Source: a virus
Lineage: Duplodnaviria; Caudoviricetes
Length of the DNA: 64,000 nt
Reading direction: 5' to 3' (one strand)
IMG/VR virus record: IMGVR_UViG_3300031853_000001
Coordinates: 96,001 to 160,000 of that record
Position numbers and translations under genes: made by a program. Below the pieces are notes generated by a model, which worked only from the letters and a program-made list of their open reading frames with translations, was not told the origin of the DNA and ran no database searches. Positions 13,513 to 28,703 of this stretch are shown piece by piece; positions within the stretch are counted from its first letter, which is position 1, and each line of letters opens with the position of its first letter.

Positions 13513-13564
13513 CTTTTTATAAAAATTTTGTTATAATATTTATGTAAGGTAAGGAAATAAAAAA

Positions 13565-13608
13565 GGGGTAGCGTTAAATAACGAGATGAAGATATTTTAT
13601 ATCGGCCC
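13565..13608 (+). promoter_or_regulatory. Homing-endonuclease leader motif, copy A
   Basis: P1-AGC-hairpin-GAGATGAA-GATA(TTTTA)TATC-P1'. Loop complementary to ATAAAG at the RBS. Confidence 0.55.
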
Positions 13609-13634
13609 AATTTAATTCTTATAAAGGTGGTCTT

Positions 13635-14273
13635 ATGAATGGATATATTTATAAAATAATTAATAAAACCAATCAAAAAATATATATTGGTAAAACTTTA
13701 TATTCTATTGAAAAAAGATTTAAAGAGCATTTAAAAGATAGCAACAGAACAGAATATCAAGATAGACCACTATATAAAGCTATAAAAAAATATGGCGCAG
13801 AAAATTTTTCAATAGAATTAGTAGAAATAGCTCCAGTAGAAATATTATCAGAACGAGAAATTTATTGGATAAAATATTATAATAGTTATCATTATGGTTA
13901 TAATGCAACACAAGGTGGAGAAGGTAAATCATTATATGATTACAATTCTATTGTAGAACAATATAAACAAGGAAAACTTATAAAAACATTAGCAGAAGAT
14001 TTTGATTGCGATCCTAGTGTAATTAAAAAAGCTATTAAAAATTCTGGAATAGATACTCATATAAATGAAATTAAATCTAAACAAATTAAAATAAGTGCGT
14101 ATGATATAAAAAATCATCAATTAGTCCAAGAATTTTCTTCTCATAAAGAAGTAGGACAATGGCTTTTTGAAAATGGTTATACTCAATCTCAAAATTGGGA
14201 TAATATTTCTGCATCAATAGGCAGAGTAAAAAATGGTTTACGTCAATCTGCTTATGGATTTAATTGGAAATAA
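13635..14273 (+). CDS. GIY-YIG homing endonuclease
   Basis: GYIYKI...IYIGKT...RFKEH; GYNATQGG; NUMOD1-like C-terminus. Confidence 0.9.
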   Translation: MNGYIYKIINKTNQKIYIGKTLYSIEKRFKEHLKDSNRTEYQDRPLYKAIKKYGAENFSIELVEIAPVEILSEREIYWIKYYNSYHYGYNATQGGEGKSLYDYNSIVEQYKQGKLIKTLAEDFDCDPSVIKKAIKNSGIDTHINEIKSKQIKISAYDIKNHQLVQEFSSHKEVGQWLFENGYTQSQNWDNISASIGRVKNGLRQSAYGFNWK

Positions 14274-14348
14274 AAGAGAATAAGATAATTAGTAGTCGGG
14301 CAGTCTCCAAAACTGCTAGTCCTGGAGCAAAGCCAGGTTCTCCTGCCA
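14274..14348 (+). tRNA. tRNA-Trp(CCA), non-canonical elbow
   Basis: AAGAGAA/TTCTCCT acceptor (1 mismatch); GCAGT-CT CCA AA-ACTGC; T-loop AGCAAAG. Confidence 0.75.
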
Positions 14349-14775
14349 TTTGGTTCCTCCTGTAAAAATCCTCTTGTTCGCGACAAGAAAAAGGAGTGGC
14401 TGGGGCTAACAATATAAGTAAAGTAGAACTTATATTGCGTGTTCGCCATTAAAGAACGCTGGGAGTTCTCTTACCCCATAAGGTAGTCCGGAATACACAT
14501 AAGATTCGCTCGGTTTCCTAACCAACCGTAAGTCAATAAGATAAATTAGGCGGAAGTCCGCTTCGTTAATGTGGGCCACGAATCCGTGCGTGAATAATAG
14601 GCGGTGAGGTGCCCGATAGGCGTGTCAACCAATAGTAGAAAGAGGCACAAATATTTTGGAGAACGCACAACGCGAGTGCGAACTTTTTATGTTATTCTCG
14701 CGGCGAAATCAAATGGCGGCTCGGATGGATTGAGGCCCGGAAGATGCCAATACGAGAAGAAACCGCGAGATTTAA

Positions 14776-14851
14776 TGGAAGGTACCAAAGCGGTTATTGG
14801 GCTGGTCTTATAAACCAGTTGCCGCGGGTTCGATTCCCGCCCTTCCAACCA
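14776..14851 (+). tRNA. tRNA-Ile(TAT)
   Basis: CTGGT-CT TAT AA-ACCAG; TGGAAGG/CCTTCCA; ACCA. Confidence 0.85.
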
Positions 14852-14854
14852 TAT

Positions 14855-14929
14855 GGGGCCGTAGTGTAAAGAACACGCTCGGAAAGCAAGGGCCGAGAAA
14901 ACAAAGGGCAGTACCGCGAGGCTCCACCA
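14855..14929 (+). tRNA. Atypical tRNA-Ala-like RNA (G3:U70, 10-nt anticodon loop, weak T stem)
   Basis: GGGGCC/GGCTCC-ACCA; D stem GTGT/ACAC; CTCGG-AAAGCAAGGG-CCGAG. Confidence 0.5.
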
Positions 14930-14945
14930 TTTAAAGGAGAATACA

Positions 14946-15384
14946 ATGAATAAATACAAATTTGGTCGCATTACTTTTGGGACTATTCTTACAGTAGTAA
15001 TGTTTAGTAACGGTTTTGGAATTAATACTTGGCAATTTTGGGTAGTTTATATTTCTGCTTGGATGATGGTTTTTATGACCTATTTGGAGGATTTTAACGG
15101 ATGATTTATTTTAATATATTTTTAGCCGCACTAAATCTTTTTTGTTTCTATGTTTGCCAAGATAATTTAATATATATTCGTGGATTAAATTTAGCATGTT
15201 GTTTATTATCTAGTTTATGTGCCATTGTTAAAGCCACTGAGAGGAACGTATAATGTTTTTAAAAATTTATTTATACTTAGATATTTTATTTACAATATGG
15301 GCTCTTCCAATTCTTATTATGTATTGTTTTATTCCAAACAAAAGTATTACAGAAGGGTTGAGAGAATGGTTTACTGAGTATTAA
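14946..15384 (+). CDS. Three short, translationally coupled hydrophobic ORFs (14946-15104, 15101-15253, 15253-15384)
   Basis: RBS AAGGAG; ATGA and TAATG overlaps; membrane-like composition; below the ORF-track size cut-off. Confidence 0.6.
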
Positions 15385-15385
15385 T

Positions 15386-15460
15386 GCGTTCGTGGGAGAA
15401 TGGTTTATCCGGAAGTCTGCAAAACTTCATATGCCAGTTCAATTCTGGCCGAACGCTCCA
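15386..15460 (+). tRNA. tRNA-Cys(GCA)
   Basis: GAAGT-CT GCA AA-ACTTC; U73-CCA. Confidence 0.9.
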
Positions 15461-15586
15461 TTTATTATAAATTATAGTAATTCAATTTTAAAATACCTAC
15501 CTCTAACGCACGGGAAACCGTGCGTTTTTCTATTTGACTTAATAGAAAATTTATGATATAATAATTTTAGAAAGGAGGAAGATAAA

Positions 15587-16048
15587 ATGACACTTGATGA
15601 ATGTAAGTTAAAAACTATTGAACATATTAATCGTGTTCAATTCTATTTACGTTTTTTTATAGATAGATTAACTGATAAAGGAACTCATCATGATGAAAGT
15701 AAATTAGGTGATATTGAAGCACCTATTTTTGCAAAACATACTGAAAATTTAAGTAATATAAAATTTGGCTCTTCTGAATATAATGAAGAACTAAAACAAT
15801 TAAAAGTAGCTTTAGAACATCATTATAAATATAATCGCCATCATCCAGAATATTTTGGTGAAAACGGAATTAATGGAATGGATTTGACAGATATTCTTGA
15901 AATGCTCGCTGATTGGATGGCAAGTACAGAAAGAACTCAAAATGGAGACATTTTTGAATCTATTGAAATTAATGCTAAACGCTTTAATATAGATAATCAA
16001 TTAAAGCAGATATTAATAAATACTGCTAAACTACTAATTAATAAATAA
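15587..16048 (+). CDS. DUF5662-like HD-superfamily phosphoesterase
   Basis: H..HDESK...HHYKYNRHHPEYF...EMLADWMAS pattern. Confidence 0.65.
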   Translation: MTLDECKLKTIEHINRVQFYLRFFIDRLTDKGTHHDESKLGDIEAPIFAKHTENLSNIKFGSSEYNEELKQLKVALEHHYKYNRHHPEYFGENGINGMDLTDILEMLADWMASTERTQNGDIFESIEINAKRFNIDNQLKQILINTAKLLINK

Positions 16049-16049
16049 A

Positions 16050-16113
16050 ATAAGAGGGAGCAATAAATTGGCCATTTATTGAGATAACGATGCCTTAATC
16101 ATTGAGCTCTTAT
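16050..16113 (+). promoter_or_regulatory. Homing-endonuclease leader motif, copy B
   Basis: ATAAGAG/CTCTTAT P1; AGC; hairpin; GAGATAAC; GATG-CCTTAAT-CATT. Loop pairs with ATTAAGG (16130-16136). Confidence 0.7.
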
Positions 16114-16145
16114 TCATATAAATATCATTATTAAGGAGTGATAAC

Positions 16146-17105
16146 ATGTCAAAATTTATTGATTTAACTGGACAGCAATTTGGAAGATGGTTAGTAAAAG
16201 AGAAATCTAGTAAAAAAACTTCTTATGGACAATATTGGATATGTGAATGCCAATGTGAAAAAAGAACTATCAAGGAAATTTGTGGGCGGTCTTTAAAACA
16301 GGGAGAATCTACAAATTGCGGTTGTTTAAAATATAAACATAAAATAGATTTAACGGGTAAAAAATTTGATTATTTATTATGCTTAAAACCTGGAGAAAGT
16401 ATTAAAAGAAATGATGGACGCTCTAAATCAACTTGGATTTGCAAATGTGATTGTGGTAAGATAATAACAATTCAAACAGAAAGCTTACGAAGTGGTCGAG
16501 CTCATAGTTGTGGTTGTAAAAATGCCGATCTTAGACGAGAAGATTTAACTGGCCAACGTTTTGGTAAACTAATAGCCATTAAGCCCGATTCTTCTCATTA
16601 TACATCTGGTGGGAATGCTTTATCTCGATGGGTTTGTCAATGTGACTGTGGTAATACTATTAGTGTAATAACGCAAGCTTTAAAAAGCGGAAATACTCAA
16701 TCTTGTGGTTGTTTAAATTCTAAAGGTGAAAGCCGTATTAAACAATGGTTATTAAAAAATAATATTATTTTTAAAGCTCAATATATTAATAAAGAAATGA
16801 AATATAATAATGGTAGTTATCCACGTTTTGATTTTGCTATTTTTAATGAGAAAAATAAATTACAATTTTTAATTGAGTATCAAGGCGATATTCATTATAT
16901 CTCTCATAAAAGTGGCTGGAATACTCCAGAAGCTCTGGAAAAAAGACAAAAATATGACGAAGAAAAACGTAATTTATGCAAAACTTTTCATATAAATTTA
17001 ATTGAAATTCCTTATTGGGAATTTGATAATATAGAAAACATTTTAAATCAACTGGTAAAACAGTATAAAATTAATACAGCAAAAATTATGGAAGAGCATG
17101 AGTAA
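16146..17105 (+). CDS. Homing endonuclease (three DLTG..W.C.C.CG..SCGC repeats + PD-(D/E)XK-type domain)
   Basis: Repeat architecture and RFDFAI..LIEYQGDIH. Confidence 0.8.
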   Translation: MSKFIDLTGQQFGRWLVKEKSSKKTSYGQYWICECQCEKRTIKEICGRSLKQGESTNCGCLKYKHKIDLTGKKFDYLLCLKPGESIKRNDGRSKSTWICKCDCGKIITIQTESLRSGRAHSCGCKNADLRREDLTGQRFGKLIAIKPDSSHYTSGGNALSRWVCQCDCGNTISVITQALKSGNTQSCGCLNSKGESRIKQWLLKNNIIFKAQYINKEMKYNNGSYPRFDFAIFNEKNKLQFLIEYQGDIHYISHKSGWNTPEALEKRQKYDEEKRNLCKTFHINLIEIPYWEFDNIENILNQLVKQYKINTAKIMEEHE

Positions 17106-17114
17106 GGAGAAAAT

Positions 17115-18060
17115 ATGATTACGAATAACGGGGAAATTATTGAAGTAATTCCAGATTTAGAAACCCCAGAAGAAATTGCTAGAAGTTTTTTTCTTGACAG
17201 AGATATTAAACTTGTAGAAAATAAGATTGAAGATTTGAAGCAAGTTCTACTTTCTTTAACTCACAATAATGATAGATTACAGCGTCAATTTAATGAACTA
17301 TATGAAGAAAAATGGGCCGATACTACACTTCAAAATATGAAGAAAGAGTTAGAACAAGTAAAGCAAAATATGTATCGTGGTTTTCCTATTACTGAAGCGG
17401 AAGAAAAGAAAATTAATAATTGGATTTTAAAGCACGATGAAGAAATTCATAATAATCCTAATCATTATCATGGTGTTTCTGGTGGAGGTTATGAATACTC
17501 TTTTCACCCTACTGGTTTAGGCACGATTGGTTATTGTATCTGTGGTATTTGTAAAAGTAAAGCCATCCGTGAAGCTGGTGAAAAATGGTGGGAACATTTA
17601 AAAAATAATAACGGATATATTGAATTTGGAGATTTTGGATAATGAATATTTTTAAAAAAAGAAACGCACAAAACTACCTTCTCCCACCAGAAAAAGAGGA
17701 AAAAATAAAAAATTTACTAGATTCAGCACCTAGATTGCTTTGGCCGCACCCAAATGATGACGTAGAATTTATAATCCCTTTATTTAATGCAGAAAAGCAT
17801 TACAAACATTTAAAAAAGATTATATGGAAAAATAGTAGGAGGTAATTATGGGGGATGAATATAAATATACCTATAAAGAACAAGCCGAACATTTTAAAAA
17901 ATTAGTTCATCAATTAGAAAAAGAAATTAAAGAATTAAATAAAGAAAATGATGAATTACATATAATTATTAATGATTTAAAAGATAAAATTACATATCAT
18001 TGTAATCCTGAAGATACTTATAGAGAAGATTTTACTTTTAATCATTTGACTTTTAATTAA
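17115..18060 (+). CDS. Three hypothetical ORFs (17115-17642, 17642-17845, 17848-18060)
   Basis: RBSs and tight coupling. Confidence 0.6.
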
Positions 18061-18136
18061 AATTCTGCTATAATAATATTGTAAAAAAGAAAAGCCCTAG
18101 TCCAGGGCTGACCAAATGAAAAGGAGATTTAAAATT

Positions 18137-19756
18137 ATGACTAATTTCAATCAGGTAGTTTCTAATTTTGTTGCTTCTCAGAATTCTTACCCTGTTCGTA
18201 AGAATATTAGCAAGGCTCACGCTTCTTCCTTTATCAATGCGATGAAGCAAGAGGATAACTTCAAGTATACCGAAAATGGTGCGGTAGCCAAGAAGTCTAC
18301 TATGTCCAAGCTATACGACCTATTTGCACTTGGCGGCTCCTATCGTTCTCGCACCGAGAGCGATTGTATCGTTCTTTTTAAGAACGCATATCAGGAGAAC
18401 CCTGCCTATGCTCTAAAGTGCCTATGGTATCTTCGTGATATTCTTGAGGGTCAGGGTGAGCGTCGTTTCTTCCGTGTTTGCTTAAAGTGGCTTGCTACCT
18501 ACGACAAGCAGGCTGTACTACGCAACCTTGATACCATTGCCCGTGATGGTTTCGGCCGCTGGGATGATCTGTTTGTCCTATTTGACACTCCTTGCGAGGA
18601 TGCTGTTATGAAGCTGATTGAAAATCAGCTAGTTAGCGACCTAAAGGCGTATCAGGCCGGTGCCGCAGTATCTCTACTTGGCAAGTGGATTCCTTCCGAG
18701 AACTCCTCTTCTGCCAAGACTAAGCATAATGCTCGTCGCATTATTGCTGCTCTTCACGTATCTCCTCGTGAGTATCGTAAGACTCTATCTGCTCTGCGTG
18801 AGCGTATCCACGTTGTAGAGCGTCTTATGTCCCAGAACCGTTGGGACGAGATTGATTTCTCTCATCTACCTTCTCGTGCTGGCCTGATCTATCGCAAGGC
18901 TTTCGAGCGTCGCGATATGATTCAGCAGAAGTATCGTGAGTTCGCGAAGGATACTTCTACCAAGGTAAATGCTGGTAAGCTATATCCTTACGACGTTGTG
19001 CGTGAGGCACAGAAGGTTATGCACTGTGATTCCTACTGGAATTATGGTTCTCGCGAACCTCGCCTAGACGACACCCAGCGTCTAATGGTTAATAAGTATT
19101 GGGATAACCTACGTAATGTTTTCCCTGCGGGTGAAAACTTTAACGCTATGGTTGTTTGCGATACTTCTAGCTCTATGCTAAATGGAGCAAGCAATACTGC
19201 TTCTCCTATGCAGGTTGCGGTATCTCTGGCAATGTATGCCGCAGAGCGTGCCAACGGTCCTTTCAAGAACCATTATATCAGTTTCAGCCGTCAGGCTCGT
19301 CTGGTAGAGGTTTTTGGTGCGGACTTCTGCGACAAGGTATCTCGTATCATCCGCTCCAATGTGTGCGAGAATACCAATCTTGAAAGTGTTTTCGACCTAG
19401 TGCTAAATACTGCTATGCAGTATCGCCTACCTCGTAACGCTATGCCTAAGACTCTTGTAGTCGTGTCCGATATGGAAGTAGATCGTTCTGCGGGTATTTC
19501 CAGTCATAAGGAAACCTTTATGGAGTCTATGCGTCGTAAGTGGGCTCAGAAGTGCGGCAACCGCTATGAGTTCCCTGACGTAGTGTTCTGGAATGTGTCT
19601 GCTCGCAACGATACTTTCCTAGACGATCCTAAGAGTGGCATTACTTACGTGTCTGGCTGCAGTCCTGTACTGTTTGAGCAGATTCTGTCTGGTAAGACGT
19701 CTATTGACCTTATGCTAGACAAGCTTAACGCTCCTCGCTACAAAGACATCTACTAA
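18137..19756 (+). CDS. DUF2828-family helical-repeat + vWA protein (Ro60/TROVE-like architecture)
   Basis: TENGA..KST, LRDI..GQGERR, GRWDDL, LLGKWIPSE, LYPYDVV, MIDAS motif VCDTSSSM, VSDME, VFWNV. Own promoter; start at ATG 18137 after AAGGAG; strongly biased codons. Confidence 0.8.
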   Translation: MTNFNQVVSNFVASQNSYPVRKNISKAHASSFINAMKQEDNFKYTENGAVAKKSTMSKLYDLFALGGSYRSRTESDCIVLFKNAYQENPAYALKCLWYLRDILEGQGERRFFRVCLKWLATYDKQAVLRNLDTIARDGFGRWDDLFVLFDTPCEDAVMKLIENQLVSDLKAYQAGAAVSLLGKWIPSENSSSAKTKHNARRIIAALHVSPREYRKTLSALRERIHVVERLMSQNRWDEIDFSHLPSRAGLIYRKAFERRDMIQQKYREFAKDTSTKVNAGKLYPYDVVREAQKVMHCDSYWNYGSREPRLDDTQRLMVNKYWDNLRNVFPAGENFNAMVVCDTSSSMLNGASNTASPMQVAVSLAMYAAERANGPFKNHYISFSRQARLVEVFGADFCDKVSRIIRSNVCENTNLESVFDLVLNTAMQYRLPRNAMPKTLVVVSDMEVDRSAGISSHKETFMESMRRKWAQKCGNRYEFPDVVFWNVSARNDTFLDDPKSGITYVSGCSPVLFEQILSGKTSIDLMLDKLNAPRYKDIY

Positions 19757-19851
19757 GGTTAAGTATAAATTTGAGATGGAGAAATCCATCTCTTTTTTAT
19801 TTGACTTATTATAAAAATTTTGATATAATATTTATAGAAAGGATGAGGAAA

Positions 19852-20208
19852 ATGAACTATTACATTTATTTGGATGATGTGCGCGAAGATGATACTTGGT
19901 TTCGACAGCATTTGAATACCGAGCATTGGATTCCTTGTGTTGTTCGTTCTTATGAGGAAGTAATTCATATTCTTGACCATATGCAAGATTATATGGACAA
20001 GGATGAAGTGCTTATTCTCGACCTTGATCACGACCTTGGCGAAACTGAAGATGGTTACAATGAACTCGCGCACACAGGATATGATGTTTGTAAGTGGATG
20101 ATAGAAAATCATTTCCCTGCCTGCTATTTTCACATTCATAGCATGAACGCTAGTGGTTCTGCGAATATGCGACAACTTCTTACTCACTATGGCTATAAGG
20201 AGATTTAA
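19852..20208 (+). CDS. Cyclic-phosphate-processing receiver-like domain protein
   Basis: IYLDDVR...DLDHDLGE...TGYDVCKWM...IHSMNASG. Confidence 0.75.
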   Translation: MNYYIYLDDVREDDTWFRQHLNTEHWIPCVVRSYEEVIHILDHMQDYMDKDEVLILDLDHDLGETEDGYNELAHTGYDVCKWMIENHFPACYFHIHSMNASGSANMRQLLTHYGYKEI

Positions 20209-20408
20209 TATGCTTTTAGATGAAAATAATGATAAAGAAAAGCTTTATAAAATTATTGATTTTCTAATAGAACAAATTAAAAATCTGCAAAGAACTAATT
20301 CTGAAATAAATGAACTTTTGAAAGAATCAATTTTTAGAAAATAATTTCTTGACTTTCTCCAAAAATTCTGATATAATTATTATAGTAAAAGGAAAGGAGA
20401 ATAACATA

Positions 20409-20654
20409 GTGGAAAAGTACAGACCTATTTATAGAGATATTCACGATTGGGCAATTTTGGACGAACGAACTATTCATGATTTTTCTGAAAACGAAACTCC
20501 TATTCACGTGGTAGAAGTTCTTATTGGAACTCTTCATTATGAGCATATAGATTTTAATCAGCATTATACTGAACATCGCACTCCTATTATTCGTTGGCTA
20601 ACTCGTAATGAATATGATTATCTTTGCGCGAATGAAGGCACCGTAATTTGGTAA
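20409..20654 (+). CDS. Hypothetical protein
   Basis: GTG start after AAGGAG, downstream of promoter 20349. Confidence 0.5.
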   Translation: MEKYRPIYRDIHDWAILDERTIHDFSENETPIHVVEVLIGTLHYEHIDFNQHYTEHRTPIIRWLTRNEYDYLCANEGTVIW

Positions 20655-20667
20655 GAAAGGATTAAAT

Positions 20668-21318
20668 ATGCGTAAGTACGAAAAAATTGAAACTCTATTT
20701 GCCCGCGATATGGAAGGCACTAAAAAGCTAATGCCGGGTATTTTTCGTGACCCGACTATTGAGTTTCTTCAGTATTGTGATTGGGTATGGACTGAGAAGA
20801 TAGACGGCACTAATATCCGCGTGTATTGGGATGGCCATAAGGTTACTTTTAGTGGCCGTACCGATAACGCAGTTATTCCCGCAGAACTTATCACTCGTCT
20901 AAATGAACTTTTTAGCGGTGAGACTAATGCTCAAATTTTTGAGCAGGCTTTTGGCGATAAGGAAGTTATTCTATTCGGTGAGGGCTATGGTCGTAAAATT
21001 CAGAAGGGCGGTGGCAAGTATATTGCCGATGGCGTTGATTTTATTCTATTTGACGTTCTAATTGGTGAGAATTATCAAGAACGTGAATGGGTTGAAAGCA
21101 CCGCCAAGATGTTTGGTATTAAGGTCGTCCCAATTGTGGGTGGCGGTTCGCTTGAAGACGCTGTAAATTATGTTAAGAAGCACCCTAATTCGATAATTGC
21201 GGAAGATGTACGAGAAATGGAAGGTATTGTATGTAGACCCGCTGTTGAGCTACGTGACCGTCGTGGTAATCGTATTATTGTAAAAATTAAGTGGGAAGAT
21301 ATAAAGGAGCTTATTTAA
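20668..21318 (+). CDS. ATP-dependent RNA ligase (Rnl2-like nucleotidyltransferase)
   Basis: Motif I TEKIDGTN, ILFGEGYG, FILFDV, EGIVCRP, IVKIK. Confidence 0.8.
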   Translation: MRKYEKIETLFARDMEGTKKLMPGIFRDPTIEFLQYCDWVWTEKIDGTNIRVYWDGHKVTFSGRTDNAVIPAELITRLNELFSGETNAQIFEQAFGDKEVILFGEGYGRKIQKGGGKYIADGVDFILFDVLIGENYQEREWVESTAKMFGIKVVPIVGGGSLEDAVNYVKKHPNSIIAEDVREMEGIVCRPAVELRDRRGNRIIVKIKWEDIKELI

Positions 21319-21319
21319 T

Positions 21320-21544
21320 ATGAATGGATTTTATAAAGTAAAAGTTAATAATTATGGAGAAAAACCCGAAGAATGGTCTGGTGTTGTTGTGGGTAACGAT
21401 GAAGGTGACCTTATGAACAAGGTTATGAAATATTATGGTCACGATAATGTAGAACAAATAAGCTTTTGGTTTGGAGAATTTTATGATAATGATGTCGTAG
21501 AATTTGACGATTTTAAGGATTGTCCATTATTTGACTTTCACTAA
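21320..21544 (+). CDS. Hypothetical protein
   Basis: Coupled to the ligase gene. Confidence 0.55.
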   Translation: MNGFYKVKVNNYGEKPEEWSGVVVGNDEGDLMNKVMKYYGHDNVEQISFWFGEFYDNDVVEFDDFKDCPLFDFH

Positions 21545-21590
21545 AAATTTTGATATAATATTTATACAAGGTGAGGGAACTCACCAATAA

Positions 21591-21663
21591 TGCGGAGTGG
21601 CCAAGTAGTTAAGGCAATTGGCTCATACCCAATAGATCAAGAGTGCAAATCTCTTCTCCGCAA
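21591..21663 (+). tRNA. tRNA-Met/Ile2(CAT), no encoded CCA
   Basis: ATTGG-CT CAT AC-CCAAT; TGCGGAG/CTCCGCA; T-loop TGCAAAT. Confidence 0.8.
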
Positions 21664-21665
21664 CT

Positions 21666-22636
21666 CAGCGCAAAAGGAGAGCAAGCTGTTACTCCGAGTG
21701 AACTTATCGGCGCTATATAAATAGGAAAAACCAATTAAATACAGTATTTTAAATGAAGTAATAACTGCCATAGAAGTCATGACCTATGATAGAAGACACT
21801 TCATTTAAAGCAACCGGTTGATTTGCGCAATTAAGTCGTTAGAAGCGACTAGAGGGAGAGACCCTGACTAATAAGCAAGTCCATTCTATGAAATGGTAAT
21901 GTCGAAAACCAATTAGTGTAAAGTAGCATACCTTACCAATAATAAGGAGAATCAGCGTAGCGAACTGAATTGGCGTACTGGAATTTGTTGTCCAGAGTAG
22001 GCATAAATCGAGCAGCAATGCGGTAATACCCGTGCACAGGTAGCTAAATTACCCTGGCTCACCAATTATTTTAGAAGATAAGACTTGAGCTTATCTCTGG
22101 CTATGAAGCGAGTGCCGTGCCGCAGATGCGGTGCTTAGTGGAGCCTATGTGGGTTTAGCGTGTCAACCACAATGCGGATAGGTATTAACCGAAAGAAAAC
22201 ACGCTTTAATGGCGCTTTATCCCAAGCCTTTTCGCGGCGGCGCTATAAGTACCAAAAGGTATTATTTAATACTGAGCGTGAAACTAAGAGGGAACTGAAG
22301 GCTGTGCCAAGGTGAAAGGCTAACAGTCCGAGTGATGACCGTTGAAGCCATTCGGTGCATAGTGGTGCCGTTAAAGCGATGGATGCATACATCGTCCACT
22401 TCATTTAATGACTTGATGCTTATCAAGCTAGAACTATCGAGGACGTGTGCGGTGGGAATGTTTGAGATTAGATGTAGATAGTTTAAGTATAGACTTGCGG
22501 TGCAAGCCTAATCAACTGGCGTTCCGCGGCCAGAATACTTTGCGGGCTTTATTGATTCGGGAGGAAGTGTCCGTAGATGAACTTCTCGGAGTAATCGCCA
22601 TAATCGAATCAGCCGTGCGGCTGGCATAATGCCGCA
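21666..22636 (+). ncRNA. Large structured ncRNA region (GOLLD-like size and context; identity unverified)
   Basis: ~970 nt with raised GC, many hairpins and no credible ORF, flanked by tRNAs. Confidence 0.45.
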
Positions 22637-22640
22637 ATAT

Positions 22641-22760
22641 GGCACCGTAGTGCAAAGGTAAGCACGCCGGCCTTTGTGAGATAGGGTAAAGTGCAGTTCA
22701 ACTCTGCCGTCTCGCACCACAAGCCGGTGATGCTGGGTTCAAGTCCCGCCGGTGCTTCCA
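22641..22760 (+). tRNA. tRNA-Glu(TTC) interrupted at 35/36 by a 44-nt mini-tRNA (22676-22719)
   Basis: GGCACCG/CGGTGCT acceptor, D arm, CCGGC-CTTT|insert|CAA-GCCGG. Removing the insert gives CT TTC AA. Confidence 0.8.
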
Positions 22761-22763
22761 AGC

Positions 22764-22832
22764 AAAGAAAAGAGAAGCATAAATCTGATCAATTTATGAG
22801 ATAATGATGCCCTAACATCAAGTCTTTTCTTT
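22764..22832 (+). promoter_or_regulatory. Homing-endonuclease leader motif, copy C
   Basis: AAAGAAAAGA/TCTTTTCTTT; AGC; hairpin; GAGATAAT; GATG-CCCTAA-CATC. Loop pairs with TTAGGG (22844-22849). Confidence 0.7.
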
Positions 22833-22856
22833 AATAAATATTATTAGGGTGATATT

Positions 22857-23498
22857 ATGAGTAGAAAATTAAGCCAACAACAATTTGAAGAAAGAGTATA
22901 TAAGACATTTGGAGATAAATATTCTGTAGTAAGTGAATATTTAGGTCAAAGAAAACCTATAACTTTACATTGTAATATACACAATATTGATTTTACAGCT
23001 ACTGCTGAATGTTTCATGAGACAAGCTAATGACACTCGCTCAAGTTGTCCAGAATGTACTGCAGAAAAACGAAGACAAGAAAATAATTCTGTAAAATGTG
23101 AATGTGCTTATTGTCATAAAATTTTTTATTTGTCTCAATCTAAAGCTAATAATTCTAAAAGTGGATTACATTTTTGTTGTAGAGAACATAAAGATTTAGC
23201 TCAAAGAATAGATAGCGGTGAACAATTCGATATAATGCGCCCGCCTCATTATAATGCAATAAAAAATGATACAGGAACAATTGGGACATATCGTATTTTA
23301 GCTTTTAGAAATTATCCCCATAAGTGCGCTGTTTGTAATTGGGACGAAGATGAAGATATATTACAAGTTCATCATATAGATGAAAATAGACAAAATAATT
23401 CTTTAACCAATTTAATTATTTTATGTCCTAATTGTCACGCAAAAATAACTTATGGGAAATATAAATTAATTGATCGAAAACAAATTATATTAAAATAA
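22857..23498 (+). CDS. HNH homing endonuclease
   Basis: CAVC...LQVHHIDENRQNN...LCPNCH. Confidence 0.9.
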   Translation: MSRKLSQQQFEERVYKTFGDKYSVVSEYLGQRKPITLHCNIHNIDFTATAECFMRQANDTRSSCPECTAEKRRQENNSVKCECAYCHKIFYLSQSKANNSKSGLHFCCREHKDLAQRIDSGEQFDIMRPPHYNAIKNDTGTIGTYRILAFRNYPHKCAVCNWDEDEDILQVHHIDENRQNNSLTNLIILCPNCHAKITYGKYKLIDRKQIILK

Positions 23499-23520
23499 AA
23501 TTAAATAGGAGTTGTTGTAT

Positions 23521-23995
23521 ATGGCAATCCACGATAGAGCTTATACTCGTACAAAAAGTTGGACTAAGGCACTTCGTAAATACCACATTGATAGAGATAT
23601 TTCCGCAGGTAAATGGTGGCCTATGTACAATAATCTCCATCAATATGCTGATAATAAAATTCATTGTTCCTGTCCAATGTGTAGTGCTAAAACCAACAAC
23701 AAAAAGCGCAATGGGCCTCGTGGATGGGAACCTTCAAAAAATTGGTCTATTTCAGATCAAAAGAAAATTAATAGTATGGAAAGTCAAGTTGAGGAATTAA
23801 ATGATAACTTGGAATAATTTTAAATGTGATTTTCCGTATCATCGTATAGATAATTTTGGCGATTATAGTGAAATGTGGTGCGGACGATTAGAAAAATATA
23901 TTTCTAATTGTAATGATTGCCCATTTAACCAAAAAGAAAAAGAGATGCGTGAAGACCCCAATAATTATCAAAAATGGCTAAAATTACATAATTGA
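23521..23995 (+). CDS. Two small Cys-containing hypothetical ORFs (23521-23817, 23801-23995)
   Basis: RBS present; CSCPMC motif in the first. Confidence 0.55.
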
Positions 23996-24329
23996 CTTTT
24001 TCTAAAAATTATAGTATAATATATATAGTTAAGGGAAAGGAGATAAATTATTTATGAATTATCTGGATGATTTTCTTGTTGGCCCGCAGAGCGATGAATA
24101 TGATTGGTATTATGAAAATGAAATTCCTGATCCAGAATGGGACAGGAGATGTCGAGGATTGGATAAACTAATACTTGACAAGTAATAAAAATTATGTTAT
24201 AATATTTATAGAAACAAGGAAAGGATGATAATTGTGCGCTTTACGACTCGCAAGTCTCGTACTGTGTTTTCTTCTTCTTGGAGTCGCCGCAAGCAGGCAG
24301 AGATGCTTGATGAGTGGCAGATTTAAACG

Positions 24330-24865
24330 CCAGATTAGTTCAGCAAATTGCGGCCAATATTAATGGCGTTACCGCATTCCTTACTTATAGTTTGGAAGTA
24401 CAAAGGTTTTGAGTAATTGAACCGGTTAAATCAATGCTTGGCGCCGGGTCCACCCTACTGGGCTCGTAAACAAATCGCGGCCAATGGTGAGAAGCGCCAC
24501 CGCTATAAAGGAATGCCCCACGACGGGTTTCGTAAGTTATGTTGAAAGATATATACTAGCTTGGAATAAGCACACGCAAGAGTTGCTATAATGCGCAACA
24601 GAAAAATCCTTTATAATAGGTTAACCTACGGTCGGATGGGAGACGATAAACCCCTTTCAAGCAGTCTCTTTGGCGGTTGGACTTAAAATAAACCACCTAG
24701 GTCAGCAGGACTGATAACTATATATTATAGAAGCAATCTCTTTTATAATATATAGAAAACGCAGCCATAATCCTGTCGTTGCGGCGAACAACGATAAAAA
24801 TCGCTAGTAGCCCAGATACTTACTTAAAGGGTTTTCGCCGCGTTAATCTTGGTATCGGATTGCGG
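24330..24865 (+). ncRNA. Cluster of structured non-coding RNAs
   Basis: GCATTCCTT/AAGGAATGC long-range stem, long AT hairpin ~24718-24755, pseudoknots; no ORF. Confidence 0.45.
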
Positions 24866-24871
24866 TTGTAT

Positions 24872-25006
24872 CCACGCGTGGTGCAAATGGCGAGACACAG
24901 CGGACTTACGTAGGCCCAGTGGCTTGTTGGAGAGCAACACTCCTTCCTACGACCAAAATCCGCGACGCAAGATACATTGCTGGTTCAAATCCAGTCGCGT
25001 GGACCA
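24872..25006 (+). tRNA. tRNA-Leu(TAA) interrupted at 35/36 by a 47-nt mini-tRNA (24909-24955)
   Basis: CCACGCG/CGCGTGG-ACCA; GCGGA-CTTA|insert|AAA-TCCGC; long variable arm. Removing the insert gives CT TAA AA. Confidence 0.85.
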
Positions 25007-25009
25007 TAT

Positions 25010-25086
25010 GAGTTTGTAACCGAATTGGCATAGGTACTTGGCTCAAACCCAAGGTTTTGTGGGTTCGACTCCCACCAAACTCACCA
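25010..25086 (+). tRNA. tRNA-Leu(CAA), short variable arm
   Basis: CTTGG-CT CAA AC-CCAAG; ACCA. Confidence 0.9.
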
Positions 25087-25154
25087 AAATTTATATTTCG
25101 AGTGCGAATTATAATAATTTGAATTCGATGTTATTACTTATCTAATGTAAGGAG

Positions 25155-25925
25155 GTGGTTAATATGCCACTAAAATATAAATTAGAAGAAGTATTAACAG
25201 AAAATTCTCCTGTTACTAGAAAAGTTTTAAAAGATTATTTAGCAAAATATAATGTTTTAGAATATAAATGTGCAATATGCGATAACAGAGGAGAATGGAA
25301 TGGAGTTTCTTTAACATTACAAATAGACCATATTAATGGTATAAGAGATGATAATAGAAAAGAAAATCTTCGTTGGCTATGCCCGAATTGTCATTCTCAA
25401 ACTGATACTTTTACTGGGAAAAATAAAACTAAAAAAGAAGTTGTTAATTTTACAGTAGAAGAAGCTATTAAAGCATTACAACAAACTGAAAATGTAAATC
25501 AAGCAACCAAATTAATCGGCTGTGCGCAAGGTGGAGCAAATTGGATTAGAGTAAATGATATTAAAAAAAAGTATGGAATTATTCAATCTGGGGATTTAAA
25601 GAAAGAAGAAAAACAAAAGTTTAAAGAAAATCATATTAATGCGAAACCAATTAACTCTATTAAATTATGTAAAAAATGCGGCCGTCCGTTATCGACAAAA
25701 GATGCTGAATACTGTCAAACTTGTATACACGAATTTCAACGAAAATGTGAATGGCCTTCTCGCGAAGAACTTAAAAAATTAATTCGCTCTACACCTTTTT
25801 TACAAATAGGTAAAAAATATAATGTAAGCGATAATGCTGTAAGAAAATGGTGCTTAAATTATGGTTTGCCATCTAAAAAGATGGAAATAAAAGCAATTTC
25901 AGATGAAGATTGGAATAATATTTGA
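25155..25925 (+). CDS. HNH homing endonuclease with C-terminal HTH
   Basis: CAIC...LQIDHING..DNRKENLRWLCPNCH. Confidence 0.9.
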   Translation: MVNMPLKYKLEEVLTENSPVTRKVLKDYLAKYNVLEYKCAICDNRGEWNGVSLTLQIDHINGIRDDNRKENLRWLCPNCHSQTDTFTGKNKTKKEVVNFTVEEAIKALQQTENVNQATKLIGCAQGGANWIRVNDIKKKYGIIQSGDLKKEEKQKFKENHINAKPINSIKLCKKCGRPLSTKDAEYCQTCIHEFQRKCEWPSREELKKLIRSTPFLQIGKKYNVSDNAVRKWCLNYGLPSKKMEIKAISDEDWNNI

Positions 25926-25976
25926 CTTTCTTTTAAAATTATAGTATAATAATTATAGTAAAGAGAAAGGATTTAT

Positions 25977-26189
25977 ATGAAAGCAAAGTGTAAATGCAGT
26001 TGTATTTGGGACTATTCTTGTAATGATATTAAAGTTGAACCTGACGGTCACGATGTTGTAGTTACTTTATATTGCCCTAATTGTGGGCATCAGCTTTTTG
26101 CTTATAGCCCTAATGACCTAATAGAAAAAGTATCTCCTTCTTATGTTGATACTCATTGTTTTTCAAAATACACTTGGAATAATACTTGA
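25977..26189 (+). CDS. Small zinc-ribbon protein
   Basis: CKC and CPNC; own promoter and RBS. Confidence 0.55.
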   Translation: MKAKCKCSCIWDYSCNDIKVEPDGHDVVVTLYCPNCGHQLFAYSPNDLIEKVSPSYVDTHCFSKYTWNNT

Positions 26190-26227
26190 CTTTTAGCAGA
26201 AAATCTGCTATAATAAATATGTAAGAA

Positions 26228-26298
26228 CGACGGTAGCAGCAGTTTTAATAATAAATATTTTTAATGTAAAAATCCTTATTAGCAAAAATTCCGTCGTG
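26228..26298 (+). ncRNA. Variant ACAGCAA-type element (GCAGCAG)
   Basis: ACGACGG-TA-GCAGCAG ... CCGTCGT-G; first element after promoter 26186. Confidence 0.5.
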
Positions 26299-26311
26299 CT
26301 GATTGAAATTA

Positions 26312-26379
26312 AGGCGGACACAGCAAATAACTATTTAAGCAATAATCTTTTAAATTATGTAGCTAAAATAACCGCCTAG
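26312..26379 (+). ncRNA. ACAGCAA-stem element 3 carrying a Lys(TTT)-like anticodon stem-loop
   Basis: AGGCGG..ACAGCAA ... ATAAT-CTTTTAA-ATTAT ... CCGCCT-AG. Confidence 0.7.
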
Positions 26380-26386
26380 AATTTAT

Positions 26387-26464
26387 GTGCCCGTGGCGCA
26401 ACTTGGCAGACGCGCTACACTTAGGATGTAGATTTTCAGAGTTCAAATCTCTGCGGGCGCACCA
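26387..26464 (+). tRNA. tRNA-Leu(TAG), short variable arm
   Basis: CTACA-CT TAG GA-TGTAG; ACCA. Confidence 0.9.
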
Positions 26465-26672
26465 GTCACTCCTCGCTAATGCGACAAGTCGCGTTAACAT
26501 TTGTTTGTTAGCTACTGTTGGAAAACGCGACTTTAAAATACAAAGAAGCAACAGTAAATAGCTCAAACCGTATGTTGAGACTATCGTAACTATCACATTC
26601 TAGGAGTCCTGACTCGTTATTGGACTTAATACTCAACGGAGTTGGCGCCCAAACAAATCCTAGAATGTATAT

Positions 26673-26725
26673 GGTATCAAGTGAAGAGCCTTCTCGTGGC
26701 GATACTGATTTCGACTAATCTTCAC
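26673..26725 (+). ncRNA. Minimal HDV-like (theta-type) self-cleaving ribozyme
   Basis: P1 GGTATC/GATACT, P2 GTGAAGA/TCTTCAC, P3 GCC/GGC, L3 TTCTCGT, P1.1 TC/GA, J4/2 CTAA. Confidence 0.8.
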
Positions 26726-27120
26726 AAAATATTAAAGCGTGCTTTTCCTTGCTGTACACTTGTTGAAAAGCCAAATGTTCCCGTATGAGAATACGCAGGT
26801 TATACCTGTATATTGAAATCCCATAAGACGTCACAAAGGAATGGATAGAAATTACAATGGGCCATTCAGAAAGTAGAACACTTTAATATTTGACTTTTTC
26901 TGAAAATTCTGGTATAATAATTACAGAAACAAGGAAAGGACAAAATAATGAAGATACTTGTTGTAAATAAAGATGAGAAAATACAATTAATTCATCTCCT
27001 AAAACAAGAAATACGCAAACCTGGTTGTCCTTATGAATTACTTACTATTTTAGAAAAACTTAGTCCTGGAGACTATGAATATCTTTTTACAACTATGAAA
27101 TAAAAGAAAGGAAGTAGATA

Positions 27121-27690
27121 CTCCATTTAATAAAATGGTTGAACCAAGTGAAGAAGAGTTAACCACTCTGCTTGGGCTATCTAAATAACAGCCATACGAT
27201 TTAGCGGGATACTACTAAATCGCGGCCACGAAATCAGTAATGATTAGTGATAAGGAGAAACTCTTAATGTTAAGGATAGGCGCTTGGTTATTCGCTAACA
27301 AAAACTTGGCTCCTTGCGGCGTCGTAATAGAAAGCAGATTGAGCAGATTTGCCGAACCCAGAAAAGACTTTAAGGTGGCAGTTAAAGGGACTCTGGGAAA
27401 GCCATAAGACGTTTGGTGTCGTTGAAACCTAGAAATAGGATATAAGCAAGGTTCACAGATAAAGTAGCCTAAAACGACAATGATTCTAATAAGTAATTTA
27501 ATTAGAATAATGTGCTGAATGGTTTAGGTGAAATTTGGGAGTAATCAGTCTCCCCGTTGCTAGCCAAAAGGCAGGATGAAGAAGTTAAAGGGTCGCTACC
27601 TTTGGCTCAGCCTTCATCTTCAACGTGGTTGAATATGTTAGAAGGATAATACAAGTACGGCGAAGGTCGCAACGGTTTTATTAAATGGGG
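27121..27690 (+). ncRNA. ~570-nt large ornate ncRNA (ROOL-like)
   Basis: 21-nt terminal helix CTCCATTTAATAAAATGGTTG / CAACGGTTTTATTAAATGGGG, many internal stems, no ORF. Size and tRNA context fit ROOL. Confidence 0.6.
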
Positions 27691-27700
27691 TATTTGCCCT

Positions 27701-27768
27701 AGACTTTAAGGTAGCATTGGAGTAATTAACCAATGAGACAAAGATGCTCCTACATCGGCTTAAAGTTT
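27701..27768 (+). promoter_or_regulatory. Homing-endonuclease leader motif, copy D
   Basis: AGACTTTAAG/CTTAAAGTTT; AGC; hairpin; GAGACAAA; GATG-CTCCTA-CATC. Loop pairs with TAGGAG (27781-27786). Confidence 0.7.
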
Positions 27769-27795
27769 AAAATATAATCATAGGAGTGATTTAAT

Positions 27796-28356
27796 ATGCC
27801 AAGGAAAATTGATTTAACAGGAAAAATTTTTGGAATCATACAGGTAGATTCGCCAGCACCAAGTCAATCTGGTAAAACGTATTGGAATTGTCATTGTACA
27901 ATTTGTAATACTAAAAAAGTAATTCAAGGTTGCGCCTTAAAAAATGGTTCTATTAAAACTTGCGGTTGTGGTTGTTCTTTTCATAAACAAAATACTTCAA
28001 AAATTTGTGAAATTTGTGGAAAAGAATTTATTCCAATAAAATTTGGCGGTGCTAGAAAATATTGTTATGAATGTTCTCCGCAAGAAGGCTCAGAAACAGA
28101 TAAGCGCACAGTTATAAGACGAGCTTTAAAAAAGATGCTAGTTGATTATAAAGGTGGAAAATGTGAACGATGTGGATATAATAAATGTTTACGCGCATTA
28201 GAATTTCATCATTTAAATCCGTCTGAAAAAGATTTTGGAATTTCTGGATGTATAACTAAAAATGTAGAAGAATTAAAAAATGAAGTTAATAAATGTATTT
28301 TAGTTTGTTCTAATTGTCACGCGGAAATTCATGAAGAATTAGACGAGGCCCGTTAG
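27796..28356 (+). CDS. HNH homing endonuclease; stop codon lies inside tRNA-Asn
   Basis: CERCG...ALEFHHL...CILVCSNCH. Confidence 0.85.
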   Translation: MPRKIDLTGKIFGIIQVDSPAPSQSGKTYWNCHCTICNTKKVIQGCALKNGSIKTCGCGCSFHKQNTSKICEICGKEFIPIKFGGARKYCYECSPQEGSETDKRTVIRRALKKMLVDYKGGKCERCGYNKCLRALEFHHLNPSEKDFGISGCITKNVEELKNEVNKCILVCSNCHAEIHEELDEAR

Positions 28357-28423
28357 TCCAGTTGGCAGAACGATAGACTGTTAATCTATGTCAGCGCTGG
28401 TTCAAGTCCAGCACGGGCCGCCA
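28347..28423 (+). tRNA. tRNA-Asn(GTT)
   Basis: ATAGA-CT GTT AA-TCTAT; GCCA. Confidence 0.9.
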
Positions 28424-28703
28424 TAGTCACATAGAGGACTTATTCTCTATGCTTGCTCAACGTCCCACTTATGTGAACGCGCGAAGTCACATAAGAGAGT
28501 CAACCCTTCCGAAGTACGAAGGAACCCCTAAAATGGTCTGTGGGGATAAGCGGTGTCATGAACCGCCTAATGTAGCTGGCAAAGAGCATAGGTTCGTTAG
28601 GCTCCTAAGAAAAGCCTATCACCATCACGATAGCAAATAAGTGAATAAACGGATACGCGGTTAGCTGACCTTAAAGCTATTCTAATCTAGAGGAGAATAA
28701 AAT

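Follow-up and report, generated by a model that had tools for sequence, protein, structure and literature searches.

Introduction

Free-standing homing endonucleases are toxic passengers, and their tolerance in the most heavily transcribed phage regions is known for only a few T-even cases, each with a hairpin of its own. The genes for T4 I-TevI, I-TevII, I-TevIII and segB and for Aeh1 mobE are silenced on read-through transcripts by hairpins that sequester the ribosome binding site (RBS); these are single, local, gene-specific hairpins, relieved by a late promoter lying inside the hairpin (PMC2988022). In twin-ribozyme introns, the GIR1 lariat-capping ribozyme is located 5' of the I-DirI endonuclease open reading frame (ORF) (PMC2219692). 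The phage regions that carry tRNA genes also encode the RNAs ROOL and drum (Weinberg et al. 2017, PMC5737381; Rfam RF03087, RF02958). The subject of the present analysis is an RNA leader found upstream of four homing endonuclease genes in a phage of this kind. The DNA analysed, henceforth referred to as the window, is a 64,000-nt stretch of IMG/VR record IMGVR_UViG_3300031853_000001, whose whole genome comprises 180,932 bp with 34% G+C. The leader contains a three-way junction (3WJ) and a second hairpin whose loops are complementary to one another. Kissing-loop elements are otherwise known from the L5-L13 platform of the cobalamin riboswitch, from ColE1 RNA I/RNA II and from TAR/TAR*.

The leader is a new and well-supported RNA family, and it is probably a two-part translational silencer that acts in cis and has a modular junction RNA as its base. 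A preliminary description of the window had missed three of its features, namely the hairpin that presents the Shine-Dalgarno (SD) sequence, the gene-less copies of the junction and the replacement of ORFs behind a constant leader.

Results

A conserved junction precedes four nuclease genes

All four copies of the motif have the layout P1-GNAGC-P2-GAGANNAN-P3-(R)RG-P1'. Helix P1 is followed by the bases G-N-A-G-C, the P2 hairpin, the bases G-A-G-A-Y-R-A-N, P3, two or three purines of which the last is G, and the closing strand P1'. P1, P2 and P3 were found in four of four copies, and P3 is in each case a 4-bp hairpin with a loop of 5-7 nt. The core pattern GAGAYRANGATR-N4-9-YATY was matched four times in the window, on the + strand only (13583, 16081, 22798 and 27735), against 0.04 matches expected by chance, and none of 100 shuffles reached four. 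A looser pattern scan of the whole genome returned the same four copies and no fifth. The copies, referred to as c1 to c4, stand 30-50 nt 5' of ORFs for a GIY-YIG nuclease (13635), a DUF2726/PD-(D/E)XK-like nuclease (16146) and two HNH nucleases (22857 and 27796). The preliminary description had proposed a conserved structured leader with fixed junction bases at these genes; the excess over chance bears out the leader, and the fixed core was confirmed across copies by alignment. Two covariance models were used for scoring: R2, in which J31 is out of register, and R3, which was built from 14 copies in one register.

The junction loop is complementary to the loop of an SD hairpin

Folding of the leaders identified a second conserved hairpin (P4), 3' of P1', that carries the SD in its loop. 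The P3 and P4 loops of c2, c3 and c4 are exact reverse complements (CCUUAAU/AUUAAGG, CCCUAA/UUAGGG and CUCCUA/UAGGAG, respectively), and P4 is present in the minimum free energy (MFE) folds of all three. All features given below by window position are on the + strand.

Copy c2 (16049..16114; R2 63.3 bits) has P1 AAUAAGAG/CUCUUAUU, a P2 apex UGGCCA (16069-16074) and P3 (C)GAUG-CCUUAAU-CAUU(G) with its loop at 16093-16099. Its P4 (16123..16143; UAUCAUU-AUUAAGG-AGUGAUA) has the loop at 16130-16136 and precedes the ATG at 16146. Copy c3 (22764..22832; R2 78.2 bits) starts 3 nt past the CCA end of the upstream tRNA, and its 3WJ is contained in the MFE fold. It has a P1 of 10 bp, a P2 apex UGAUCA (22786-22791) and P3 (U)GAUG-CCCUAA-CAUC(A) with its loop at 22810-22815; P4 (22837..22856; AAUAUUA-UUAGGG-UGAUAUU, loop 22844-22849) ends directly before the ATG at 22857. 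Copy c4 (27700..27769; R3 75.1 bits; z = -2.4 for the MFE fold) has a P1 of up to 11 bp, a P2 loop AG-UAAUUA-A (27721-27729) and P3 GAUG-CUCCUA-CAUC with its loop at 27747-27752, followed by P4 (27776..27791; AAUCA-UAGGAG-UGAUU, loop 27781-27786) and the ATG at 27796. The outlier is c1 (13562..13611; R3 48.9 bits), in which P1 (GGG/CCC) and P2 (GUU-AAAU-AAC) are only 3 bp each; GUAGC, GAGAUGAA, P3 GAUA-UUUUA-UAUC and GG complete the copy, and the P3 loop does not match the SD of the gene, AAGGUGG (13624-13630).

A P4 stem of at least 4 bp was found in 27 of 28 copies, with a mean of 6.6 bp compared to 3.4 bp in the null. Its 3' arm reaches the start codon and in some copies overlaps it; with the kissing helix and P4 combined, the SD and spacer are fully paired. 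Because the SD lies in the loop of a hairpin of its own, the interaction is a loop-loop kissing complex and not a plain pseudoknot. Direct reading of the sequence shows that the P3 and P4 stems are not complementary to each other and that only the loops are, which rules out a DNA inverted repeat.

Loop and SD covary across the family

A model-based alignment of 29 distinct 3WJ sequences showed changes on both sides in 16 of 16 pairs. Pairing was 99% in P2 and 100% in P3, values that none of 500 shuffles reached, and controls with slid partners gave 24-47%. RNAalifold, applied to a plain MAFFT alignment, recovered P2 and P3 independently, along with an invariant C-G pair closing P2. The invariant bases fall in G-N-A-G-C, in G-A-G-(A)-N-N-A and at the final G of J31, with about eight invariant and five nearly invariant positions; the length of P1 varies from 3 to 11 bp across copies.

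Fourteen different P3 loops were found in the ORF-bearing copies: CUCCUA, CCUCCA, CCCUAA, CCUCAA, CCCUUA, CCUUAAU, CUCCUAA, CUCUCC, CUCCUGU, CCUCUA, CCUCUAU, CCCCAUA, CCUUCA and the UUUUA of c1. A further loop, CCUCCAA, came from later metagenome copies. Of 20 non-redundant copies, 19 have the reverse complement of the full loop just 5' of the start codon, a count that includes c1, whose match falls inside the ORF and is not meaningful; among non-cognate pairings of loop and leader, 4.5% were fully complementary (permutation p < 5e-5). The six-pair kissing helix was 97.4% paired, with double changes in five of six pairs, in 26 sequences of a MAFFT alignment not fitted to the structure. When the three helices were counted together in this alignment, sliding the partner by 1-3 columns reduced pairing to 37-53%, and none of 500 shuffles reached the observed value. 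Concerted loop swaps were seen in homologous units, where the CCCUAA/UUAGGG of c3 is replaced by CCUCAA/UUGAGG in phage G001 and by CCCUUA/UAAGGG. Co-evolution of the loop with the SD of the downstream gene, as claimed in the preliminary description, is thus upheld across the family.

Copies were found in large uncultured phages of the rumen and gut

Searches of IMG/VR and metagenomes with the two covariance models identified about 50 distinct copies, all in large uncultured rumen/gut phage contigs, and the sequencing runs that contain the c4 region are mostly cattle and sheep gut or rumen samples. Exact-pattern scans covered IMG/VR, metagenome contigs and GTDB genomes; one such scan gave two GTDB matches, which lie inside coding sequence, score 23-26 bits and were treated as false. 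Among the whole records of 49 phages with a Ro60-like protein, eight were positive and the other 41 gave no motif match at E <= 0.01. Another 47 whole records included 23 positives with 1-4 copies each. When 87 loci with relatives of two of the nuclease proteins were checked, the motif was found in one related phage, which indicates that the spread of the leader is not simply tied to that of the protein families. A blastn search of cultured phages (word size 11, two leader queries) returned only chance matches to the SD region.

Comparison with Rfam by covariance model, as proposed in the preliminary description, matched no Rfam family. The Rfam 15 gathering-threshold scan of the window reported only ROOL, drum and tRNAs and placed no family on any copy, and permissive scans of six loci likewise assigned none to a copy, with no ribozyme family at E up to 10 (c2 and c4) or E up to 1 (four further loci). 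Nuclease-linked motifs are not mentioned in the main text of a catalogue of 10,006 IMG/VR candidate RNAs (PMC10690425), which may nevertheless contain the motif as an unnamed entry.

The junction is a module of its own

The junction occurs without a gene between two tRNA genes, and nuclease ORFs are exchanged behind it. About ten orphan copies lack an ORF and are placed between tRNA genes; at two of three loci the orphan leaves only 1-5 nt of the gap unfilled, and at the third, L168, 28 nt. The junction bases of the orphans are invariant. Their changes are located in the loops, together with one compensatory change in P3, and the majority of the P3 loops lack an anti-SD sequence; no consistent partner for these loops was found within +/-300 nt.

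Loci L093 and L244 differ by a nuclease cassette of 908 bp, which begins 3 nt 3' of the junction; on both flanks they are 96% identical, and both junctions have the loop CUCCUA. The c3 leader is followed in one relative by a different HNH-type ORF, and the c4 leader in other relatives by a GIY-YIG gene or by a third ORF; in each case homology stops at the start codon. The same break behind the c4 leader was found at 27793 in a contig from a metatranscriptome run. Whole units are also found in new positions: in phage G001 a different tRNA precedes a c3-type junction with its HNH gene, and elsewhere a tRNA takes the place of ROOL before a c4-type junction with a GIY-YIG gene. These comparisons show that exchanges of the regulatory RNA and of the nuclease ORF are independent of each other. 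A single contig from run X22, of uncertain origin, joins 27703 to 28657 and would represent a relative lacking the junction, the HNH gene, tRNA-Asn and a 63-aa ORF.

With tRNA genes as called by ARAGORN, the first base of the copy falls -4 to +6 nt from a tRNA 3' end in at least 21 of 49 cases, and reading by eye adds more. ARAGORN misses several tRNA-like genes that have a T arm and CCA before the junction, so counts of junctions that follow a tRNA are lower bounds. Such missed genes were observed 5' of L190, L203 and L171 (about 80 nt before the junction) and in the window at 22641-22760. Locus L284:1451-1731 contains a tandem of tRNA, orphan junction (loop CUCGUGU), tRNA, and second junction with SD hairpin and nuclease, with gaps of 0-3 nt.

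Of the 23 distinct P2 sequences, 13 carry a self-complementary hexamer U-NNNN-A at the tip, compared with an average of 2.0 and at most 8 in 5000 shuffles. These palindromes are of five to six kinds (UAGCUA, UAAUUA, UGAUCA, UGGCCA, UCAUGA), and they could support kissing homodimers or constitute a DNA dyad. The 9-nt P2 loops are laid out like the HIV-1 dimerisation loop, with two purines, the hexamer and one purine.

The four units lie in an array of RNA genes

The window contains an array of 20-24 tRNA genes together with a drum RNA (22098-22209; 70.8 bits) and a ROOL RNA (27120-27688; 315 bits) that ends 12 nt 5' of c4. Eleven near-perfect TTGACT-17-TATAAT promoters, all on the + strand and mostly with an extended -10 TG, are located between 13509 and 26918, and by consensus they would drive the tRNA, drum and ROOL genes and the small ORFs of the array. 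The promoter at 13509-13537 lies directly 5' of c1. This arrangement supports a predicted co-transcription of the four junction-nuclease units from strong sigma-70-type promoters of tRNA, drum or ROOL genes. It also fits the earlier suggestion that the leader allows nucleases to reside in RNA operons that are strongly transcribed. ROOL-like sequence was the deepest-covered part of the region in four rumen metatranscriptome runs, seen as contigs only. A T4-like late promoter, TATAAATA, was considered as an element of the linker and found no support: it is present in the linkers of some copies, but neither genome-wide nor 5' of genes is it enriched (60 sites, rank 18 of 56 permutations), with the proviso that the T4-like consensus may not be that of this phage.

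The gene behind c1 (13635..14273) encodes a GIY-YIG homing endonuclease (PF01541, 3.6e-09; phrog_7168), and that behind c2 (16146..17105) encodes a DUF2726/PD-(D/E)XK-like enzyme (PF10881; phrog_374/559/9084). Those behind c3 (22857..23498; DUF723 + HNH; PF01844, 1.1e-06) and c4 (27796..28356; phrog_2255, 3.9e-27; PF01844 in frame) encode HNH enzymes whose sole common feature is the HNH motif. The four proteins had been described as unrelated, which is accurate for their catalytic domains but not throughout, as the c2 and c4 proteins have an IDLTGxxFG...C.C DNA-binding module in common. The module IDLTGxxFG...W.C.C...GC is repeated three times in tandem in the c2 nuclease, with three IDLTG repeats, and is present once in the c4 protein.

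Elsewhere in the family, the intact ORFs tested behind the copies matched HNH subfamilies, GIY-YIG subfamilies, PD-(D/E)XK_5 or DUF2726, with the exception of L162, L177 and L204. The ORFs of L177 and L204 have an HNH-type zinc-finger motif, recognised by eye only, and that of L162 had no Pfam match. In several related phages, TAG is apparently read as glutamine (L093:1587-2255, L092, L089, L164, L165 and L177; IMG/VR sample 3300045988 and others). Translated with table 11, the nuclease ORFs of these phages span 11-60 aa, compared with 200-310 aa when TAG is glutamine, and 'YKITN*ING' aligns with 'YKITNQING'; ORF calling in some of these phages must therefore allow TAG as glutamine.

Discussion

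We regard as established the fold, the covariation between the two loops, an exclusive association with nuclease genes and, by promoter consensus, the transcription context. The explanation that we favour, with somewhat better than even confidence, is a translational silencer in two parts. The first would be the 3WJ of roughly 60 nt, whose core G-N-A-G-C / G-A-G-A-N-N-A / R-G would hold out the short P3 hairpin with a 6-7-nt loop that acts as an anti-SD tailored to the following gene. The second would be P4, placed 7-16 A/U-rich nt further 3', with the SD in its loop and its 3' arm over the spacer between SD and AUG. The two loops are predicted to form a kissing complex of 6-7 bp that leaves the whole translation initiation region base-paired. 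Nuclease ORFs riding on abundant tRNA, drum or ROOL read-through transcripts from strong early-type promoters would thereby be translated at a very low level. That this pairing represses translation is inferred; repression would be constitutive with some leak, not switched, and the A/U-rich linker, for example, may serve as a standby site.

Several points weigh against the silencer. Each loop had been described as complementary to the RBS of its own gene, which holds exactly for c2, c3 and c4 but not for c1: there the UUUUA/UAAAG match depends on a G-U pair and leaves out the SD core AAGGUGG; its duplex energy is +0.3 kcal/mol, and it is no better than chance. Taken as simple duplexes, the predicted SD-16S pairing is at least as strong as the loop-loop pairing. 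Six nuclease genes of the same genome (four GIY-YIG, one HNH and one PD-(D/E)XK_5) lack the leader. The support comes from sequence analysis, and the RNA runs consist of contigs without read ends. It is not obvious why a scaffold for an anti-SD loop would require eight invariant junction bases, and the orphans keep the junction although no gene follows, so a further role of the junction is probable. The invariant core and the orphans together suggest that this role is independent of the gene, and the position of the junction at tRNA CCA ends makes transcript processing its most likely form.

The fullest version of such a role would be a new autonomous RNA class, a self-cleaving or RNase-guiding punctuation of tRNA 3' ends that doubles as an expression dock for a succession of unrelated nucleases, restrained by the match of their SD loop to the P3 loop, possibly dimerises through the palindromic P2 loop and, by the processing of the junction, times nuclease synthesis. 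We hold this only as a tentative possibility. It is unlikely, too, that the junction is primarily an autonomous processing mark of phage tRNA arrays, self-cleaving or guiding a host or phage RNase, which would split the tRNA CCA end from the RNA downstream. Nucleases would then dock behind it, their SD hairpins would adapt to the P3 loop, and cutting or unfolding would free the SD. The many copies that begin near a tRNA 3' end, the orphans that fill tRNA-tRNA gaps with structure and junction bases kept, the position of c4 and its relatives behind ROOL and the L284 tandem are as expected under processing. So many invariant and nearly invariant bases in a 3WJ are also on the scale of small ribozymes. 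A precedent exists in GIR1, a ribozyme that processes the 5' end of a homing endonuclease mRNA (PMC2219692). Against processing stand the failure of any Rfam ribozyme family to match even at E up to 10, the variable length of P1, which argues against a molecular ruler of the RNase P type, and the positions of c1 and c2, which are not behind a tRNA. The orphans could also be footprints of recent nuclease-gene loss, as L244 and L279 retain the anti-SD loop CUCCUA.

The preliminary description had read the leader as a ligand- or protein-responsive switch. In such a switch, binding of a small molecule or of a phage or host protein to the junction would set whether the P3 loop meets the SD. Invariant junction bases amid variable helices are typical of binding pockets, and two recurrent classes of P2 loop, AGUAAUUAA and NUAGCUA, are kept across different stems and could mark a recognition site. 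Sequestration of the SD by a distal loop also resembles the kissing-loop expression platform of the cobalamin riboswitch. Among the hallmarks of a riboswitch, a conserved junction and SD sequestration are present; folding revealed no competing structure that would exclude the first. Only nucleases are encoded downstream, and these suggest no logic of metabolism or transport. The motif is also small, and a search for a protein that accompanies it gave none, the Ro60-like protein being present in 41 records negative for the motif. A switch is improbable.

More doubtful still is a feature of the DNA, in which the conserved sequence would be a landing pad for homing or recombination and the RNA fold incidental. 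The 908-bp cassette inserted 3 nt behind an otherwise identical junction, the three different ORFs behind a c4-type leader with the break at the start codon, and the DNA palindromes at the P2 apex in 13 of 23 distinct sequences are consistent with a landing pad. However, the three helices, P4 and the kissing helix all carry compensatory changes, which show selection at the level of RNA, and helix sequences differ almost wholly between copies, which leaves little common DNA target beyond about 13 bases. A landing pad can hold in addition to the RNA role, not instead of it. Mimicry of a tRNA or RNase P substrate was rejected, as no copy was called as a tRNA by ARAGORN or Rfam and the 3-11 bp of P1 leave the combined length of P1 and P3 unfixed.

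Nuclease genes of at least four families share this one conserved RNA module. For an intramolecular kissing complex, its 14 loop/SD pairs form a natural covariation series of unusual clarity, and the family joins the unexplained RNAs of phage tRNA islands (ROOL, drum and Y-RNA-like). The leader, at about 100 nt, is small enough for direct experimental tests. A junction that proved to be catalytic or to guide an RNase would tie the control of selfish genes to tRNA processing.

Comparison with described systems places the leader closest to the T-even hairpins. In both, an RNA in cis pairs with the SD of a nuclease gene on a read-through transcript, and T4 segB also lies among tRNA genes. The leader differs in that one 3WJ family serves many unrelated nuclease genes and also occurs without a gene, and in that the SD is bound by a distal loop and its own hairpin instead of the 5' arm of a local hairpin. 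The classical T4-style solution is found within the same genome, at one of the nuclease genes that lack the leader, a GIY-YIG gene outside the tRNA array where a simple hairpin, UUCUCAC...GUGAGAA, covers the SD GAGGUGAGAA (G000:C1:150540-150576; window about 54540-54576).

Among catalytic RNAs, GIR1 is likewise an RNA with a junction core directly 5' of a homing endonuclease ORF in a transcript that is not an mRNA, and it adapts that ORF for expression; it differs in being about 190 nt long, derived from a group I intron, eukaryotic and catalytic, and has no sequence or model similarity to the leader. The hammerhead, a small 3WJ ribozyme, and the other small self-cleaving classes in Rfam (twister, twister-sister, pistol and hatchet) resemble the leader in size, in a 3WJ with about a dozen conserved junction bases and in being found in phage regions rich in tRNA genes and ornate RNAs. 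The hammerhead core CUGANGA / GAAA / UH is absent from the leader sequence. ROOL and drum occupy the same habitat in rumen phages, beside tRNA genes, and c4 abuts the ROOL gene; their folds are unrelated to that of the leader, and they are free-standing with no link to a downstream ORF. The kissing-loop elements also combine two hairpins with fully complementary loops of 6-7 nt, one of which holds the ribosome binding site. The leader differs from them in having no known ligand domain and in being intramolecular, constitutive as far as visible, and set in a phage nuclease context. A known regulatory principle, RBS sequestration, is thus encountered here in a new form, with a credible chance of more.

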